Below, in pieces: positions 37,898 to 62,060 of a stretch of 64,000 nucleotides of DNA. The position numbers and the translations under genes are program-made. Position 1 is the stretch's first letter, and each line of letters begins with the position of its first letter. Source of the DNA: a virus; the IMG/VR virus record IMGVR_UViG_3300045988_124153; one strand, written 5' to 3'. A model generated the notes under the pieces. The model was not told where the DNA came from. It ran no database searches and saw only the letters and a list, made by a program, of their open reading frames with translations.

Positions 37898-39707
37898 TAT
37901 GGGAGTAAAAGAAATAAGAGAACTACTTAGACTCTACAATCTCGAACATAGTGTCGTCCAGAACAAAAACTCTGGGCGGTATTCTATTATTCTCCATAAC
38001 AACATCATAGGAACGAACGTAGATGGAGAGAAGGTAGTTGTGTTCAGAACCATTCCGGATGGAAGCAATACGTTCTCTATGGAGCGAAATAGATTCTATG
38101 AGGGGTTTGTAGAGGCTTTTGATGACGATAAGGCGATTGAAGCCGTAAGACAGTATTTTGAGAAAAACAGAAATGATAGGGTATAAGACGAAGATGGATT
38201 ATATTACTATCGAAATGAGGTAAAACAACGATAAAGCAATGGAAAAGATGGATGATAATACTAAAAATATCCTTTATCCAAAAGGATCTATTTTTCGCAT
38301 ATTAAAAGATGATATAATCAGTGCCGAATTTAAAATCGTCAAAGGAGCTATAGCGGAGGCAGTATCAGACATAGAAGTAAATGATAAATATGCTGAGGTT
38401 TGTTGCAATGGGGAGACGTTCGTCATAGAAACGGATATTATGGATATTATTCTTACCAAAGACCCCATAGAAAACAAATCGGTGAAAAATGACATCATTG
38501 ATGATAAACTACGATGGGATTTGCTTCCAATGGAAGAGATTGAGGACATTGTAAAAGTCTATCATGCCGGAGCCAAAAAGTACGATCCTAATACTTGGCA
38601 GAACCTTGACAACGGATTTGAACGGTACCGTGCTGCGATGTTTCGACACCTGATGGAATACATGAAAGGGGAAAGAGTGGATTCCGATACAGGATGTTTT
38701 CATCTTGCACAATGTGCATGGAACTGCATAGCTATGCTGTGGTATGACAAGCATGGAAAAGGGTTGATACCATTAAATAAGGAGGAAAAGAAATGACAAT
38801 AGAACAACTAAATTATTTATTAAGAAAAGAGCTTTATGCTATAAAAAACCATAAAGACAATATTGATAGAATCAAAAAAGAATATTTTGATTCCAATTAT
38901 GGGTTAAAAGAAGGAGATAAGATCCGTATTTTACACGAAGCAGGAGATGAAATGATAGGCTTCTTGAAAAAAGTTGAAGTATGTGAAGACGGAGATCTGT
39001 ACTTGACAATCCAAAAACAAAACGAAAAAGGTGATAGAGGCAGAGGAACGTGGAATATGTATCTATCATCAAAATCAATTAAAATAGAAAAATTATTAGA
39101 TTAATAACGATATGATTAGAGCAAGATTTTACATTAAAAAATCCGACTGCGGTAACGACTACCGTCCAGTCAAATGGCCTATAAAATATCCATATTGGTG
39201 TAGTGGTGAATCCGATGATTCATTCATACTTGTAGCGTATGCCGAAGACGAAGACAGCATAAAAGAGCTGTGGCCGGAAGCATACGATATTAATGTCTTA
39301 GAAAAAGATACTGAGGTTAAATTCACATTAAGATTTCCTAAGCCGAAATGGTATGAATTGCAAGAAGAGAGATTAGAAGAGTATGATAAATTATATGGTA
39401 AATTCGTATGGGTTACAGACATGTGTCTAAAAGATGGGAAAATAAGAAAGGTAAAAGCCAGAATAGAAGATTGTGGTGGTCTTTTATTAGCCGACACTCC
39501 TGGTCGTTACACCCCTTATCAGATAGGGGATTGTGCTTTTGAAAGCAAGGAAGAGGCTTTAAAACATGCAGAGGAACAGAGAACGAATTTAATTAAGTCT
39601 CTTAAGTTACAAATACACGAACTTGAAAATCTAAAATTTGAATGCGATGATTGAATAATTTGATTATTTTACAAATAACGATTACATTTACGATATAAAT
39701 CATTCAA

Positions 39708-40898
39708 ATGAGATTAGTTGAAAGGCATATAGTTAAAGACAACCGGTTTGAGGATATTTGCTTCAAATCCGGCTTGTTATATAATTATGTTCTTTACAAC
39801 ATTCGTCAAGGAATCTTTTCAGGTAACTATTTAAAGGAATTTGATTTATCAAACAAACTTTGCAAAGAAAACCAATTTGATTTCAGGAATTTACCTAATC
39901 ATGTTTCACAGCAGGTGATTAAACAGGTATTTAAAAACATAAAATCCTGGATGAGATTAAAGAAAGATTTTGAAAAGAATCCTTCGAAATACGGTAATCA
40001 TCGTCCTCATCTTCCTTCGTATAAGAAGGGCAAGAAACAAAACATGGTTGTTTTCACCAACTGCAATTGTAGGGTAAAGGGTGATAATTGTATTTATTTT
40101 GTTAAAGATATAATCAAACCTATCAAAACAAATGTAAAGAAAGACGAACTAAAACAAGTTAGAATAATCCCTCAAGCTACATGTTATGTAGTAGAGGTAG
40201 TTTATGAAAGAAAGGAAACTGATCTTGGTTTAAACAAAGACAATTTTCTTTCGATTGATTTAGGATTGAATAATTTATGTTCATGTATTAGTAATGTAGA
40301 AACTAATTCTTTCATTATAAACGGACGGGTTATGAAATCAGTAAATCAGTGGTACAATAAGAAGAAAGCTAAGTTGATGTCTTTTGTTGGTAATAAGGGA
40401 ACTTCAAATAGAATAAGAAAAATTACTTTGTTTAGAAATTGTTGGATAGAAGACAAATTGCATAAAATCAGTAGATACATTGTAGACTTTTGTAAATCTA
40501 ACAATATAGGAACAATCATCATTGGATTAAACAAAGAATGGAAAAACGAGATAAATATCGGTAAAAGGAATAACCAACATTTTGTTTCTATTCCTCATTC
40601 TAAATTGATTGATAAGATTGTTTACAAAGCAAATCTTTTAGGGATAGAGGTAATTACTCATGAGGAATCTTACACATCAAAGATTGACCATCTTGCTTTT
40701 GAACCTCTAAAGAAACAGGAATCCTACTTAGGAAAAAGAAAGAAACGTGGATTGTTTCAAAGTTCAATTGGAAAACTGATCAATGCAGATATTAATGGAT
40801 CAATTGGAATAGCAAGAAAAGTAGTCGGTGATTCTTTCATTGGAAAGATAATCGATAGTGGATTTGTGTTTAATCCGGTTAGAATAAATATTTTGTGA
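39708..40898 (+). CDS. tnpB: TnpB-like (OrfB_IS605) protein with RuvC-I (SIDLGLNN) and RuvC-III (INADINGSIGIARK) but the zinc finger replaced (S.TSKID... no CxxC): a degenerate or derived TnpB
   Basis: Motifs read directly; the Cys of the Zn ribbon are absent. Confidence 0.6.
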   Translation: MRLVERHIVKDNRFEDICFKSGLLYNYVLYNIRQGIFSGNYLKEFDLSNKLCKENQFDFRNLPNHVSQQVIKQVFKNIKSWMRLKKDFEKNPSKYGNHRPHLPSYKKGKKQNMVVFTNCNCRVKGDNCIYFVKDIIKPIKTNVKKDELKQVRIIPQATCYVVEVVYERKETDLGLNKDNFLSIDLGLNNLCSCISNVETNSFIINGRVMKSVNQWYNKKKAKLMSFVGNKGTSNRIRKITLFRNCWIEDKLHKISRYIVDFCKSNNIGTIIIGLNKEWKNEINIGKRNNQHFVSIPHSKLIDKIVYKANLLGIEVITHEESYTSKIDHLAFEPLKKQESYLGKRKKRGLFQSSIGKLINADINGSIGIARKVVGDSFIGKIIDSGFVFNPVRINIL

Positions 40899-42083
40899 TA
40901 TAAGGTTGAATCTAATGAATAAAATGAATAATTTTAATAACATTAACTACGCAGCAAAAGCCAGAAGAGCTTATTTGATAAACAATTTCGATAAGATTCT
41001 TAACAGCCTCAACGCGCTTCATTCGACGGTTGAAACCATGACGTTGTTCGTAAACGACCAGGCTTATAATTACATTCTTAAGCTGAAGGAAGTGATTAAG
41101 GGTGGTCCTATGTACAAACATAATGTCAAACGATTTTTGAATGATATGGACAAAGAGATAAAGAGGTACAATGCTTCTATCTACTACATAAATAAAGAGC
41201 GTAGTGAGGTTATAGCTGATATAACACAAGCGATGGAAGATTGCCTCATGCCATACATAGACGACCTGGCCGGCGCTATAAGGGCAGCCGTGTGGTCGAG
41301 GGGTGTGTCCGAGGAGCGGACGGAAGCGGCGGTACTGTCCCTAATCGTATCCTCTTTGGCCACGACATCAGGCAGACTTATTTCAGGTGGATATCAGATC
41401 ATGAAAGAAATGGGTGGAGGCTGGGGTGGTAATCCATTTACGTTTATGAGCATTGATAAGATAAGACACTTATCTACATCATTATCTGATGCTATTACCG
41501 GTGGAGAAATAGCTCTTGAGGAAAAAGAAGCCAATGACATAACTAAGGCAATGGATGTTTTTATTGAGAAAATGTCTGATTCAGATATTGTTGATAAGGT
41601 GATCAGCATACTCGAAGAGGCAGAATCTAAAAACAAGGAGGAGAGATCGTGAATTATTTAGATGGGTATGTAGAAGAGATTCTTTCCGAGCCGTACTATG
41701 ATGATTACGGTTCTGGTATTTTTAGGTGGTGGGTGAAAGTGTCTTACATTTGCGAAGGCATAGGAGCTGTCACTACCTTAATGTTTGATACGAGAGAAGA
41801 AGCAGAGGCAGTAAAACCAGGTTACAAATTTTTATGTTGAAAATAATATGAAGTATTTTATTTTATTGATGACATTAGTATTATCATCATGTTCAAATAA
41901 TCATCAGGTTAATGACGGATGGGTTATATATGATCTACGTCCTTTACAGGGTGGACGTGTGATGTATTATGCTGAAGACGAAAGAATTTCAATATTTAAA
42001 CATAATAGAATCATAAAATTCGTTGGATACCAAGGGGAATACAATATCGGAGATTCTATTAAGATCTTGACATACTCCCATCG

Positions 42084-43235
42084 CTAAAGCAAATGGGATT
42101 CTTGGATACAAACGCAAGAAACCCCGACATTACTATCGTTGGAATTACTCTTACTCTCCAATTCGGAAATGCCCTTCCGAAGTATATTACGGGATGCAAG
42201 AACATCACGGTCGTTGACCGCGCCGCACGACGGGCATACCCACGTGCGGTCGCGTAACGACAGTCCTTTATTAATGCAGCCACATTCACAAGTTTTGGAA
42301 GAAGGATACCATTTGTCAATCTTATGTACTATCACTCCATACTTTGAAGCAATATATGTAAGTTTGTCAATAAAAGAAGAATGACTGAGATCAGAAACTT
42401 TCTTTCCCCACAAACGTTTCATTCCTTCAATGTTTAGATCTTCAATAAAAATATAATCATATTGTTTACACAAATCATGAGCTAATTTCCATTGAAAGTC
42501 TGATCGAAGATTGTTTATTTTACGATACGCTTGTTGTAGTTCAAACAGTCTCCTTCTTTTATTATTGGATCCTTTCTTTGCATTAGAAAACCGTTTGTTT
42601 AGTTTTCTAATCTTGTTTTGATATTGTTTGAGGAATAATGGAGAATCGATTTTGCTACCATCACTTTTAGTTAGATAAGTTTTCAGACCAAAATCCAATC
42701 CGATAGATGCACCATCATGTGTCTTTCTATAAGAGTTTACAGGATTATGGTCTGTAACTATAATCAAACTAAAACGGGAACAGGTTTCTCTAACTATTCT
42801 AATTTGTTTAACATTACCTTCATAAGGTCTACTGTATGAAAACTTAAAATGTTTCTTTCCTTTGTTAATTGTTAGACAATTTCCATTCAGGGTAAACCCT
42901 CCTTGTTTGAATACAAAAGAATTGAATTTCTCCGGTGATTTAAACTTAGGAGGTCGTTTAGCCAACTTCTTGAAGAAGCGATTGTATGCTGAATCTAACC
43001 TTTGAATAATTTCTTGTGTTGTTTGGGAATGAAGAAGATTTCTCTTAATTCTTTTAGAGAAATGTTTTTGCATCTTGCCAACTGAGATATATTTCCCAAA
43101 CAGTTTGTAATACCTACGTTGTAGAGCTAAAGCATGATTCCATACAAAACAGCATTCGCGAAGTATCTTGACAAGATACTTCGTTTTCTTTGAATAATAT
43201 ATGTTATATTTGTATGAAATCATTTTTAACCACAT
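42084..43235 (-). CDS. tnpB: TnpB RNA-guided endonuclease (IS200/IS605 family, IS1341-like): RuvC-I IGLDFGLKT, RuvC-II IFIEDLNIEG, Zn ribbon CECGC...CPSCG, RuvC-III NDRDVLASRNI
   Basis: All catalytic and Zn motifs present. Confidence 0.8.
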   Translation of the reverse strand: MWLKMISYKYNIYYSKKTKYLVKILRECCFVWNHALALQRRYYKLFGKYISVGKMQKHFSKRIKRNLLHSQTTQEIIQRLDSAYNRFFKKLAKRPPKFKSPEKFNSFVFKQGGFTLNGNCLTINKGKKHFKFSYSRPYEGNVKQIRIVRETCSRFSLIIVTDHNPVNSYRKTHDGASIGLDFGLKTYLTKSDGSKIDSPLFLKQYQNKIRKLNKRFSNAKKGSNNKRRRLFELQQAYRKINNLRSDFQWKLAHDLCKQYDYIFIEDLNIEGMKRLWGKKVSDLSHSSFIDKLTYIASKYGVIVHKIDKWYPSSKTCECGCINKGLSLRDRTWVCPSCGAVNDRDVLASRNILRKGISELESKSNSNDSNVGVSCVCIQESHLL

Positions 43236-43321
43236 TTATGATACAAATATAATAATAACTTTTTGGCATATATCAGAATCAATTATTTAAAAATACATAT
43301 ATGAATAAAAGAATCATTGAT

Positions 43322-43341
43322 CCCCTGCTTAAAAGCAGGGG
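43322..43341. mobile_element. IS200/IS605-type subterminal hairpin (CCCCTGC-TTAAAA-GCAGGGG) about 90 nt upstream of the tnpB(-) start: a putative IS left end
   Basis: Perfect 7-bp GC-rich hairpin in an AT-rich divergent intergenic region. Confidence 0.45.
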
Positions 43342-43949
43342 ATTTGTTAAAGATCGTAAAAGTAAAATAATATGAAAAATAATTTAAAACTCGTATGTCC
43401 AAAATGTGGCACCCCTCACCAGCCTCATTCTCCGCACACGATGGATGCAGATGGATTTGAAAGGTGTGAGATAAGAACTGTCATGGAAGACAGGGGATGG
43501 TGCTACGAATGCTCTTTTTGGCAAAACTTGTACGACAAGCACAAAGACGATCCTGGATGGGTTAGGATAGATGGTGAAAGCTGGGTGCTTAAGCCTATGG
43601 TGGAAAACGTACCGAGCGGATGGAACAGCCTTGGATGTGGTGGAAGAAAAATGTATATCAATATCGAAGGGAAAGGCATTGTTACATCAAATAACTGCTG
43701 GTGTCAAGGTGATGTTTCGGACGCATTCAAGGATCTTATGCCTGATAATGCTACTTGGGCTACGAAGGAGGAATTTGACAAAGCTCCTGTAGTAGGACAT
43801 ATCATAGAAGGTATTGGTTTAGTTTTCACAGATAGGGGAGGTCATGAAGTTAATGCTTAGAAACTTATTTCATGTTCTGCTTATACAAGAAAAGATGGTA
43901 ACTACAACAATCCCCAACCATACAATAGGCGTACGGTTGGGGATTGTTG

Positions 43950-44687
43950 TCATATCGTAAAATTAAGTGTTTTTTCTAATATCAGATATTCAGTATGAAC
44001 TTTACTTCCGCCATCATTTATCAAGTCCAAATTAATATAAGCTGTATATGATACATGATGATCACCAGGAGCAAGACGTTTCATATCTGATAAGAACATA
44101 GAATTTAGACCTTGGCCAGACCATGATTCTGGATATGGCAAAGGTTTAAAGTCGGCGTCTGTACATCTTACAACCCAAGTAAGATTAGGATCTGCCCTAA
44201 CTATTCTATCATGAGGTCCATCAATTACAAGATCTGGCATCTCATATTGGTAACTATCATAATTAAGGACAATAGGATCACCAAAGTTTACACCGTATAT
44301 AGCAGCAGGTGGAGTAAAGCTTGTTATTAAAAAGGTTCTATTAATCCTATTGGTTGTTCTTAGCGTAAACTCATCAGGTGCTATCACACTTACTATAAAT
44401 CCATAATGAGGAGAGGTTGTTAAAGCAATAGCAAGAACCACCGAATCCTGTTCAAGCAATTCCTCTGTCGTATCAACCCGACTATCGATCTCTTGCCTAT
44501 CTTCCATTGGAACACCGCCTTGGACACTTATGGAATCCAGCCGTTCTTTTTTAGACAGAAAGATAAATTGCCCGCCCTGTGGAATGGTGCCTACTTTCTT
44601 TCCTTCTACGATTACCCCCCCCTATACAATCGCTAACTATCTTATACTCATATAGTTTAGCATTATTTTCAAATCTTCTTCTCATAA
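43950..44687 (-). CDS. Tail-fibre-region protein beginning MRRRFENNAKLYEY...; it reads through a G10 tract (on + strand C10 at 44615-44624, encoding GGG) into the track ORF 43950-44507
   Basis: In the printed sequence the frame is open from ATG 44687 to the stop at 43950; the N-terminal MRRRF matches the internal MRRRF start of the neighbouring gene. The ORF track starts only at 44507, implying a different tract length. Confidence 0.4.
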
Positions 44688-44691
44688 TTTC

Positions 44692-45393
44692 ATAAAATTA
44701 ATTCGGTAAAGGGGCGGACATAACGTCGATTACTCCTTGTACTTGTATCCAAATGATCTCCTTGGATGTTTATATCATAATACCACGAATAGGTAAATTG
44801 TGTAGATTGAGTGGATGTCCACATTTTATTACTCATTATCGTACCTCCTACCATTAAAAGGCATTCGTTTATTTCATTCGCATACAATGATATCAAAAAA
44901 ACTCTCCGGCGCCACCTACATATCCATTTTGACCATTTTTAAATAAATAGCTATTAGCTTTATTAAAAGCGTAATTTTCATTACTGGTATCATATTCAAG
45001 ATACGCATTCTGATTTTCACGCCCCCAATAATCCTTTTTAACGGTCTCCATATAAGAACTATTTTGTGCAAATACATTGTCTACTATTCCATTCTTACCC
45101 CAACTAAATGTGCCAATATATTCGGTGGCTATAACAAAACACACTTTATCTACAAGAGCTATTCCATTGCATAGATCATTGGAATATCCTTTATTAGACC
45201 AATTTTCTTTCGTATATAATCCTCCGTCTACATGTTGGATGTATATGCCTTTATTGATTATAAGCGAGGGATTTACCCCCATCCCTATTTGAAATCTTCG
45301 TCTCATGATTTTTGTTTGCAAGATAGCAATAATTGACAACATAAAAGAAACCGGTTCCCTATCATCTCTGACTGAGAACCGGTAAGAAAACAA
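44692..45393 (-). CDS. DUF1566/FISUMP-like carbohydrate-binding (tail-fibre-like) protein, split over two frames (track ORFs 44893-45393 and 44690-44896); C-terminal motif WTSTQ...YSWYYDI...RRYVRP
   Basis: The YWSST...AW...VRCV-like signature sits in the second piece. The printed sequence places the stop at 44692-44694; the track's 44690 and its W-containing translation cannot be reproduced exactly from the print. Confidence 0.4.
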
Positions 45394-52454: not shown

Positions 52455-53470
52455 TTATTATTTGTTTAAATAGACCAGTTCCGTCTATTATAATATGACC
52501 GTTTCTCATGCGGTCATTATTTGGGTTATAGAGAAAGTTAAGACCATCCACTTTCTCTTGTTTTTCAAAAGAGTTGATATCCTTTCCTCTACTTGCCCTA
52601 TCAAAAGCCTTCTTAAACAATTTGCCTCTGAAAGTCATAATAATCTTTCTGGTAGCGCTATTCCCGGCTTTTACCATTGTTTTCCTTGTCTGGTCCTCCG
52701 AGACAAAACTGCTTCGGAAAACATACGATGCTGCTGCTTGTATATCCTGCTTGGTAATCATATGCAAAACATTCCTTTCAGAATACTGGTCTTTATTCCG
52801 TATATCAATTTCATGTTATCTCTATCATATACGCCAAAAAGGATTCACTGGGGTCCTTTGGATTTACGCTCAGTTGAATTATGCAATTGTAAAGATAGAC
52901 CTTAAGTTCATAATTATCAGAGTATCTATCCTGTATGTTTTCAAATGTCTTAATTAATTCTTCAACAAGTACTCTGCTAAATGAAAAAGGTTCTCTACAA
53001 TCACCTTTAAATATGATATGATTTAAATCATTGGTATTATCAAATTCGTACTCTACCCGACTGTCGTCCATCATATCATAAGTGATTGACTTTTTGATTT
53101 TAAATCCCATATTATTTTGTTTTTTAGTTAATATAGATCTTCTGAATACAATTGTTCTCTAATGGCACTCCTATCTACTACCATTTCCTGATTATTGCTC
53201 TTAACAAGTTCAGATGCTTCCTCTCTTGTTAAAAACTGATTCTTGCTTGTCAAAAATCCTTGAACACTACAGTTTTTATGGGCTATACCGTATGCCGCAA
53301 GTTGAGATAGTATAGAGGGGTGTCTCAATCCACAAAATACGGTTCCAGATGGTATATTGGTGGGCTGATGAGGACGCTTCTTGCCGTCCTGCACCCAGAT
53401 GGCCGCGCATATTACTATTTCTTTATTATACATGATACGTTTTTCTATTAAATTTATTAAATATATTCAT

Positions 53471-61350: not shown

Positions 61351-62060
61351 GATAAAAAAAATAGGCCCAAAAGAGAATGTCAGATCCCACTATGACAAAC
61401 CCTAATGAGCCAAAAATATCTTTCAACATCAAACAACCAGAGGTGGGATCTCGTTGTTCATTGTTTCTGAAACAAAGATAGGAACAGGATCTTAAATAGC
61501 AAATATTTTAATACTTTTTAAATCAAACCAGGGCCCGCATCACTGCGAACCCTGATCTACACTAATCTAAACTAATACCATGAAAAACTTAAATCTAAAA
61601 ACTAAAGAACACACAAATGTATGAAAATGTATGCTTTTCGCAAAGAATCTGTATCCTGTTCTTTTGTGTGATTCAAGACATGGGATATAGTTCTGATACT
61701 TAATCCGGTTTGATTTTGTATCAGATTATAAATATAGGATTTTGAAACTACAGTTCTTAATTGACCTAAATCATTCATAATGTTTTTATACATAAGATGA
61801 ATGCTGTTATTACGTTTGATGGTACTGATTCTCATTTCCTACCGTTATTAGTTGCGTTCTGTTCTTACTTTTCCCTATTTTCTATAATCCCTTCCTGAAA
61901 CTAATATCGCAAACTTAATAAAAATAATCCATAAACAATGAAAATCTAACTTTTCTTATATGTTATTGATATATACACATATATAAGAAAAGTGAGACTT
62001 TCACAAGCCTCACTTCCCAAATTGTGATTATGAAAAAACTATATCATATATATACAAAAA

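Follow-up and report, generated by a model that had tools for sequence, protein, structure and literature searches.

How should two convergent tnpB genes that bracket three small open reading frames (ORFs) in a phage genome be understood, when one of the two encoded proteins lacks both the zinc-finger cysteines and the canonical RuvC-II glutamate? The question is raised by the IMG/VR virus record IMGVR_UViG_3300045988_124153, of which a stretch of 64,000 nt was analysed; this whole stretch is called the window below, all coordinates refer to it, and codes of the type L002 designate related viral loci. An ORF scan recovered the arrangement given by the original prediction: a plus-strand gene, tnpB(+) (39708–40898, 396 aa), faces a minus-strand gene, tnpB(-) (42084–43235, 383 aa), and three plus-strand ORFs (40906–41652, 41649–41840 and 41848–42087) lie between them. 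Both proteins match Pfam OrfB_IS605 and Cas12f1-like_TNB, PHROG 506 and NCBIfam guided_TnpB above the cut-offs, and they share about 22% identity with each other. Taken as a whole, the data make it quite likely that the window carries two unrelated non-autonomous OMEGA elements that landed independently of each other, that TnpB(+) belongs to a RuvC-II-rearranged lineage derived from IS607, and that the intervening genes are native. Each element landed at a junction of overlapping genes in an epsilon crAss-like gut phage.

That the two insertions are independent can be read directly from related genomes. The closest annotated genome is that of phage crAssE-Sib (OR575929; locus L001), a human gut phage of the epsilon crAss-like group. 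It displays the gene order of the window (a dATP/dGTP diphosphohydrolase gene, small ORFs, orthologs of the 180-aa, 248-aa, 63-aa and 79-aa genes, then a 162-aa gene), and both TnpB sites are empty at these loci. The element containing tnpB(+), hereafter element 1, is present at the same site without the element containing tnpB(-), hereafter element 2, in L002 and other IMG/VR contigs that encode a 98–100% identical TnpB(+). Conversely, L162, which is 96.5% identical to the window, carries element 2 with a 100% identical TnpB(-) and an empty element 1 site. As genomes with neither element, with element 1 only, with element 2 only and with both all exist, the convergent bracket is a coincidence without functional meaning: both TnpB elements are insertions, the pair consists of two unrelated elements that were each inserted independently, and the genes between them are ordinary native phage genes. 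A composite unit that would mobilise or protect the three enclosed genes would fit the convergent flanking and the fact that both guides point inward. It is nevertheless very improbable, as all four genotypes were found, the three genes are syntenic in phages devoid of either element, the two elements differ in family, ends and transposases, and only one of the 21 genomes that harbour element 1 at this site (the window itself) also harbours element 2 there.

The second part of the question concerns the protein encoded by element 1, which had been proposed to be either an inactivated copy or a TnpB derivative devoid of nuclease function.

39708–40898, plus strand: tnpB(+), 396 aa, RuvC-II-rearranged (Ealt) type, with D184, G273, E319/E320 and NAD361IN and without zinc finger

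TnpB(+) scores 64.7 bits against PF01385 (cut-off 30.5), 31.2 bits against PF07282 (26.3) and 154 bits against NF040570 (100). As had been noticed from the sequence, RuvC-I (IDLG, D184) and RuvC-III (NADIN, D361) are retained and the ribbon cysteines are missing. The region expected as CxxC...CxxC reads SKIDHLAFEPLKKQESYLGKRKKRGLFQSSIGKLINAD and includes zero cysteines; within residues 321–358, neither the window copy nor 81 phage copies have a Cys, and clade relatives have at most one. The RuvC-II motif, which had been described as weak, is better viewed as one whose glutamate has been relocated: the sequence IIIGLNKEW is found where the RuvC-II glutamate is expected, the canonical Glu position being occupied by Gly273, and a conserved glutamate pair, E319/320, is found further downstream.

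These features are shared by a large family. A word-indexed search retrieved 7,788 homologs of TnpB(+), the best 120 of which are 78–93% identical, 392–409 aa long and mostly carried by contigs of about 150 kb; an exhaustive search of 50%-identity representatives retrieved 4,793 clusters at E<1e-3 and 1,106 at E<1e-30. In a clade alignment of 40 representatives sharing 35–50% identity with TnpB(+), D184, G273 and D361 are invariant, E320 (EESYTSK), W278 and K279 are nearly invariant, and the CxxC...CxxC ribbon is missing throughout; in a further alignment (A4), E320 of EESYTSK(C/I) is invariant. Past EESYTSK, the clade consensus is (C/I)SxLDxE...GKRxKRGLFxSxxGxxINADxNG. Among the 81 phage copies, D184 and G273 are conserved in all, and E319, E320 and D361 in 80. 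The AlphaFold2 model of TnpB(+) built on the clade alignment (pLDDT 91.6) places G273 at the end of a strand (267–274) and E319/320 at the end of the next one (314–319), and the former ribbon region retains short strands. It has been reported that a RuvC-II Glu replaced by Gly is compensated by an alternative Glu on the next strand in TnpBs with a NADxN RuvC-III motif, and that this probably forms an active site (PMC10691335, Altae-Tran et al. 2023). This alternative glutamate, called 'Ealt', lies six residues ahead of the zinc-finger position in the IS607 lineage (PMC10711439, Yoon et al. 2023; also PMC13565253). The zinc finger is not universal among TnpBs, and its loss was reported at branch level (PMC10691335). 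Gly273, the missing zinc finger and the alternative Glu319/320 thus appear to be clade characters and not defects, and Glu319/320 would take over from the canonical RuvC-II glutamate.

The selection acting on the gene points in the same direction. Pairwise ratios of nonsynonymous to synonymous substitution rates (dN/dS) of tnpB(+) amount to 0.05–0.16, between sites as well as within one site, which indicates a functional protein and not a decayed copy, and elements of this family occupy at least 20 contexts in epsilon crAss-like phages. The idea of a decaying, inactivated copy of an ordinary TnpB could draw on the weak score against the Pfam TNB profile (31 bits versus 71 for TnpB(-)) and on the lack of a nearby tnpA. 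It can hardly be reconciled with these dN/dS values, with intact ORFs in 79 of the 81 phage copies (the two others contain stops), with a length that stays at 394–396 aa over thousands of homologs, with the confident structure model or with the invariance of the supposed defects across the clade, and it is very improbable.

A nuclease-dead, domesticated RNA-guided DNA-binding protein that would regulate the adjacent 248-aa gene, as TldRs do their partners, deserves closer attention. TnpB(+) indeed has neither the canonical RuvC-II Glu nor the Cys4 ribbon, the best PDB sequence match is a nuclease-deactivated Cas12f (9n9c, E 3e-4), the predicted guide covers the start of a phage gene, and some copies (type L036) are conserved despite having almost no left end. 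TnpB(+) also resembles TldRs and nuclease-dead TnpB/Cas12f proteins (PMC10705468; PDB 9n9c) by its compact TnpB fold and by a weak local similarity around RuvC-II. However, TldRs lack catalytic residues or the C-terminus, do not move and are tied to a partner gene, whereas D184, E319/320 and D361 are conserved both clade-wide and in 80–81 of the 81 phage copies, TnpB(+) is full length with an untruncated C-terminus, and the element is found in at least 20 contexts with no constant partner gene. Moreover, autonomous relatives possess a TnpA, the guide is merely the flank as for any mobile TnpB, and the Gly plus alternative Glu arrangement is regarded as active in the literature (PMC10691335). 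A regulatory role of this kind is therefore improbable, and TnpB(+) is more plausibly a mobile, probably active RNA-guided nuclease. A Foldseek search with the TnpB(+) model retrieved Cas12f, TnpB and Fanzor2 structures with E values from 1e-18 to 1e-11. Since the missing zinc finger and canonical Glu are characters of a large, mobile and probably active lineage, such proteins should not be annotated as dead.

In some phages, a second, diverged gene of the TnpB(+) family (43–72% identity) is located 1–3 kb from the first one (L010, 5219–6433; L060, 5430–6200, minus strand; L065, 5848–7032), and clusters of elements of this family thus occur. Homologs with 79% identity to TnpB(+) are recorded under a Vibrio olivae assembly (L082) and an uncultured Mollicutes metagenome-assembled genome (records P0060, P0099, L082 and L083); as the distribution is otherwise restricted to phages at this level of identity, they look like misbinned or misdeposited phage contigs.

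How does element 1 move, and where does it end? Its boundaries were delimited by comparing copies from different contexts with empty alleles, which gives the following features.

39650–39651, plus strand: left-junction AT, in the second codon of the original downstream gene (ATG ATT, insertion after the second AT); a single AT in empty alleles
39652–39707, plus strand: element 1 left end, 56 nt, without GC hairpin, from the alignment of copies from different contexts
40752–40941, plus strand: predicted omega/reRNA scaffold, made of the tnpB 3' end and a 43-nt right end finishing in AATTTTAATAAC, from RNAalifold and the conserved terminus
40942–40943, plus strand: right-junction AT; variable sequence begins after the right end
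40944–40963, plus strand: predicted 20-nt guide TAACTACGCAGCAAAAGCCA, the flank after the right end and the start of the native downstream gene

The right end is common to copies from 22 contexts: it ends 43 nt past the stop codon in AATTTTAATAAC, followed by A or G, then T, then variable sequence. The left end, about 56–60 nt long, is AT-rich, and no subterminal hairpin was found in the left or right end. An AT directly precedes the left end in all 10 sites with a full left end. In the empty alleles of the window site (crAssE-Sib and L162), the sequence is gATG[AT]TAA(T/C)TACGC, with one AT at the insertion point (in brackets), while AT stands at both junctions of the filled allele. For four sites (the window site, with two independent empties, L016, L019 and L032), clean empty alleles could be compared, each with a single AT; the junctions are AT/AT at the window site, L016 and L019, and AT/GT at L032. 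More generally, the right junction is AT in the sublineages at least 77% identical (about 10 sites, including the window) and GT in 11 others. The base ahead of the left-junction AT is G in 9 of 11 sites, versus C in the filled allele, which suggests a target motif close to G-AT. A dinucleotide crossover of the IS607 type predicts such a junction geometry (PMC10711439). Two other junction models, a TN crossover dinucleotide and a 3-nt duplication, both fail to fit all sites, and no empty allele of the L062 site came out of a pattern scan.

The transposase associated with relatives of element 1 also points to IS607. Of 68 bacterial or archaeal loci encoding relatives 38–56% identical to TnpB(+), at least 20 have a co-oriented ORF of about 200 aa that abuts or overlaps the start of tnpB; these loci originate from Cyanobacteria, Chloroflexota, Bacteroidota, Campylobacterota and Asgard archaea. 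All four representative upstream ORFs tested carry a Resolvase domain, and one of them also has a below-cut-off N-terminal helix-turn-helix match. Such an arrangement was found in a phage as well: in L065, a serine-recombinase tnpA (tnpA-Ser) precedes a tnpB whose product is 77% identical to that of the window, and this locus shares the ends of element 1, with a left end of about 60 nt upstream of tnpA and the same right end. As tnpA-Ser is present in L065 and in bacterial relatives and none was found in the window, element 1 appears to be a tnpA-less, non-autonomous derivative of an IS607-type element. Mobilisation by a Y1 transposase of the IS200/IS605 type, which would insert the element 3' of a short motif, was considered instead of that by an IS607 serine recombinase. 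Every junction, including the GT-type right ends, would be explained if an element ending in (A/G)T inserted 3' of AT, and switching of transposase type among TnpB clades has been described (PMC10691335). However, neither end contains subterminal hairpins, relatives including phage L065 are linked to a Resolvase-type TnpA in the overlapping IS607 arrangement, and a motif check of the ORFs upstream of bacterial relatives revealed no HUH-type (Y1) ORF. Mobilisation by Y1 is thus unlikely, if somewhat less so than the regulatory role discussed above, and the IS607 origin of element 1 is preferred.

Three direct copies of the 10-mer TGAATAATTT are found in element 1, at the start of the left end (39652–39661), within tnpB (40267–40276) and 8 nt before the right-end terminus (40925–40934); these copies may be binding sites of a recombinase or a by-product of AT-richness.

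The 3' end of element 1 probably encodes the guide RNA scaffold. RNAalifold, applied to the final 215 nt of 19 copies from different sites, yielded seven helices (at about 40752–40916) in which 97% of the cells are paired. Nine pairs are changed on both sides, and 33 double-change cells were counted versus 14.3 +/- 2.8 in column shuffles (a value reached in 0 of 500) and 4–8 in controls with slid partners. The hairpin with the strongest covariation lies across a stretch where the protein varies (DSFIGKII / DSCINTIV / DSYVSRII). A single copy of the predicted guide is present in the window, and the empty allele of L162 matches it perfectly, with a flanking G-AT. Together with mobility at 20 or more sites, the dN/dS values and the clade-wide characters, this covariation speaks against the proposal that tnpB(+) is an inactivated or nuclease-free derivative.

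Several observations weigh against the interpretation of element 1 as an active IS607 derivative. First, the association of a right-junction GT with a left-junction AT in 11 sublineages does not fit a simple crossover between matching dinucleotides, and at three GT-type sites (L036, L068 and L080), 4–12 nt of the target are replaced and the left end is shortened. Second, IS607 is reported to use GG and not AT (PMC13565253). Third, a serine-recombinase tnpA was looked for in the element 1 copy and in the window and none was found, a Y1-type gene not having been searched for in the window. Fourth, a fold of the element 1 RNA from a single sequence is no better than shuffles (z = -0.5), and the comparative analysis was needed for this reason. 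Finally, the argument for activity of the zinc-finger-less subgroup is one of conservation. At L036, L068 and L080, the left end is reduced to about 12–40 nt and the replaced target is the region upstream of the start codon, so these are not clean insertions; the L036-type TnpB, which 13 loci carry in intact form (dN/dS about 0.14–0.19), is therefore maintained without a normal left end.

What does element 1 do to the genes that it separates? In the empty allele, the upstream 180-aa gene and the downstream gene overlap (GAT GAT TAA / ATG ATT AAT). The first bases of the left end, TGA, supply a new stop codon to the 180-aa gene (GAT GAT TAA in the empty allele, GAT GAT TGA in the window), and the downstream gene now begins at a right-end ATG, with MN(K M)NNFNN as a short leader. 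This placement recurs at other sites. Out of 22 sites, 15 have a long ORF downstream (64 to more than 900 codons) that shares the frame of the triplet following the right end, versus one site for the other two frames, and six of the eight sites with empty alleles correspond to an insertion in, or right after, the ATG start of the downstream gene. The right ends of GT type convert ATG into GTG and include an in-frame stop 15 nt upstream, and those of AT type bring in-frame ATGs at -27 and -18. As the right end brings its own start (terminal GTG or in-frame ATG), insertion would do little harm, and the architecture of the right end may minimise the damage to the phage.

The three genes located between the elements are the following.

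40915–41652, plus strand: native phage gene without family match; its crAssE-Sib ortholog (L001, 5573–6286, 237 aa) has no adjoining TnpB
41649–41840, plus strand: native 63-aa gene, phrog_8110 (PHROG E 6e-14); ortholog in L001, 6283–6474
41848–42087, plus strand: native 79-aa lipoprotein-like gene; ortholog in L001, 6482–6730; weak match to a VirB7 lipoprotein over the signal/lipobox region

The 248-aa ORF exists as originally delimited (40906–41652), but it is not wholly native: the ORF finder begins at the TTG at 40906, the gene now starts from an in-frame ATG (40915 or 40924) within the right end of element 1, and the first 6–9 codons of the ORF derive from this right end. The 248-aa protein matches no family in Pfam, PHROGs or NCBIfam. 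Its gene has a G+C content of 0.44 (41000–41750), versus about 0.30 for both tnpB elements and 0.32–0.39 for the neighbouring genes. The 63-aa ORF was confirmed as a gene by its PHROG family and its crAssE-Sib ortholog. The lipoprotein ORF is likewise present at the predicted position, except that the right end of element 2 contributes its final 21 nt (six codons and the stop), in place of the native C-terminus.

Element 2, which provides this stop, is of a different and more familiar type.

42047–42066, minus strand: predicted guide GATCTTAATAGAATCTCCGA, directly 3' of the right end, with one occurrence in the window
42067–42300, minus strand: right end and predicted omegaRNA scaffold with terminus ...GTATGTCAA, from the conserved end and the fold z score
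42084–43235, minus strand: tnpB(-), 383 aa, canonical D-E-D and Cys4 zinc ribbon, from Pfam, PHROG, NCBIfam and the ISDra2 alignment
43236–43355, minus strand: left end, starting GATCTTTAACAAAT, with a hairpin at 43322–43341
43356–43359, minus strand: TTAC, target/transposon-adjacent motif (TAM) beside the left end, from five of five copies and from empty alleles

TnpB(-) is canonical, as had been stated: its alignment with ISDra2 TnpB covers the whole length (E 3e-30), and IFIEDLN, CECGC...CPSC and NDRD are intact. The GC hairpin CCCCTGCTTAAAAGCAGGGG, correctly recognised as part of a left end, is located exactly at 43322–43341; the end of the region, which had been set at 43345, has to be moved, the left end reaching 43355 and TTAC following at 43356–43359. 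All five copies with the same type of left end start with GATCTTTAACAAA(T/G)CCCCTGCTTTTAAGCAGGGG and are preceded by TTAC, and their contexts all differ; the element 2 family also has left ends of a second type, preceded by TTAT. The other boundary was derived from 80 relatives belonging to the same phage group, which represent 27 flanking contexts: the right end is conserved over the hairpin CCCATTTGCTTTAGCGATGGG and the terminus AGTATGTCA(A), to GTCA(A), in the 27 contexts and variable beyond. The right-end hairpin, CCCAT...ATGGG (42077–42097), spans the stop codon of tnpB(-), and two copies (L209 and L230) show compensatory changes in it. The 3' 234 nt of element 2 fold better than 200 of 200 shuffles (z = -3.67), so that both tnpB genes keep a structured 3' RNA. 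Three empty alleles (L007, L027 and L064) read, on the minus strand, TTAC directly followed by GATCTTAATAGAATCTCC (or TTAC followed by GATCTTAAT), a perfect match to the 20 nt that follow the right end. Element 2 thus extends from 42067 to 43355 (1,289 bp), with tnpB as its sole gene, and is a classical, non-autonomous element of the IS200/IS605 type. It resembles IS608 and ISDra2 by its D-E-D plus Cys4 TnpB, its subterminal hairpins, its insertion 3' of TTAC without duplication, its TCAA end and its guide, which is the flank; it differs from them by the lack of a Y1 TnpA within the element and by its location in a phage genome.

Flanking duplications of 19–27 bp suggested by the first BLAST boundary estimates were rejected as extension artefacts. 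The first 18 nt of the element 2 left end, GATCTTTAACAAATCCCC (43338–43355), agree with the target/guide GATCTTAATAGAATCTCC (42049–42066) at 13 positions out of 18 when both are read in register from TTAC; this likeness, which misled these first estimates, is absent from other copies and is probably due to chance.

Combined with what is known of related elements, these data allow the following model to be drawn. Transcription of the phage would read through tnpB, and the guide RNA of element 1 would consist of its last ~190 nt and of the first ~20 nt of the downstream gene. The ribonucleoproteins of both elements would cut alleles with an empty site, either in sibling phage genomes during co-infection or in excision products, the target of element 1 being approximately G-AT followed by a match to the guide. 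Recombination with the filled allele would then copy the element in, thereby restoring or spreading it, as was described for IS605 TnpB, which cuts empty alleles so that recombination restores the element (PMC10055086; reviewed in PMC13565253). New sites would be reached by means of a serine-recombinase TnpA acting in trans, for example that of the autonomous L065 copy, with a crossover at or next to AT.

The closest relatives of TnpB(+) among described systems are the RIIr TnpBs (PMC10691335) and the Ealt, pro-Fanzor TnpBs of IS607 elements (PMC10711439). They share the Gly in place of Glu, the alternative Glu about six residues before the zinc-finger position on the next beta strand (beta-5), the NADxN RuvC-III motif, the linkage to a serine-recombinase TnpA, a guide located just outside the right end, and mobility. 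In contrast to the definition of Ealt by Yoon et al., which includes CxxC...CxxC (PMC10711439), the TnpB(+) subgroup is devoid of the four ribbon cysteines. It also differs from Fanzors by a DLG instead of a DPG RuvC-I motif, and element 1 differs from IS607 and ISXfa1 by its AT/GT junction, theirs being reported as GG. Both elements of the window are reminiscent of the free-standing homing endonucleases of T4-like phages (PMC13565253), which are also small selfish nuclease genes lodged between conserved phage genes and present or absent among siblings; both would likely spread by cleavage of empty alleles during co-infection. Unlike the T4-like genes, target recognition here would be RNA-guided, the right end is of transposon type, and homing is what the model proposes. 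In crAssE-Sib, two dissimilar TnpB 'transposases' (18% identity) in opposite orientation, found in only some members of Epsilonunovirus, have been reported (Viruses 2024, PMC11054128); they occupy other loci, the loci of the window being empty there, and the report includes no analysis of ends, guide RNAs, active site or insertion sites.

A right end placed exactly on phage start codons with a built-in start, an AT/GT junction and a natural series of filled and empty alleles were not found described in the literature searched. These points add detail and do not amount to a new kind of system; the type of TnpB(+), the paired TnpBs of Epsilonunovirus and the type of element 2 were already known. 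A more specific proposal, somewhat less likely to be right than wrong, is that zinc-finger-less Ealt TnpBs derived from IS607 form a family that is radiating and specialised on epsilon crAss-like phages, with a right end built for phage start codons (portable GTG/ATG and an AT-rich leader). If this were true, insertion between overlapping genes of a compact genome would be scar-free, the left end in the window even supplying the upstream stop, and a guide matching the conserved first ~20 nt of a coding sequence would suit homing between co-infecting siblings with little or no need for a TnpA. Purifying selection on copies with almost no left end fits such homing specialised on start codons. 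More broadly, the placement of right ends at gene starts suggests how elements persist in tightly packed viral genomes. The pairs of filled and empty alleles in abundant gut phages, with perfect sibling targets for both guides, offer a convenient test of phage-to-phage homing by TnpB, and a compact (396 aa), zinc-independent putative nuclease with an apparent G-AT motif would be of interest for genome editing if active.

Some further observations concern the surroundings of the two elements. A gene encoding a DNA (cytosine-5)-methyltransferase is located between the 103-aa and 180-aa genes of crAssE-Sib (L001, 3914–5041) and is absent from the window (39104–39112); this presence/absence polymorphism falls less than 600 bp from element 1. 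An Rfam scan of 38000–45000 detected no known RNA family over either guide RNA, and its only hit was a sub-threshold match to the Listeria small RNA rli38 at the end of the 162-aa gene (43804–43949, plus strand; 34.7 bits versus a gathering score of 49, E 0.055), which is most likely due to chance. The window also holds the empty alleles of three sites that are filled by elements of the TnpB(+) family in siblings, at 28865–28884 (plus strand, type L068), 53119–53139 (minus strand, type L025) and 61578–61601 (minus strand, type L016). The last one, TTTTTAG-AT-TTAAGTTTTTCATGG, matches exactly the flank of the L016 element, which is its predicted guide.

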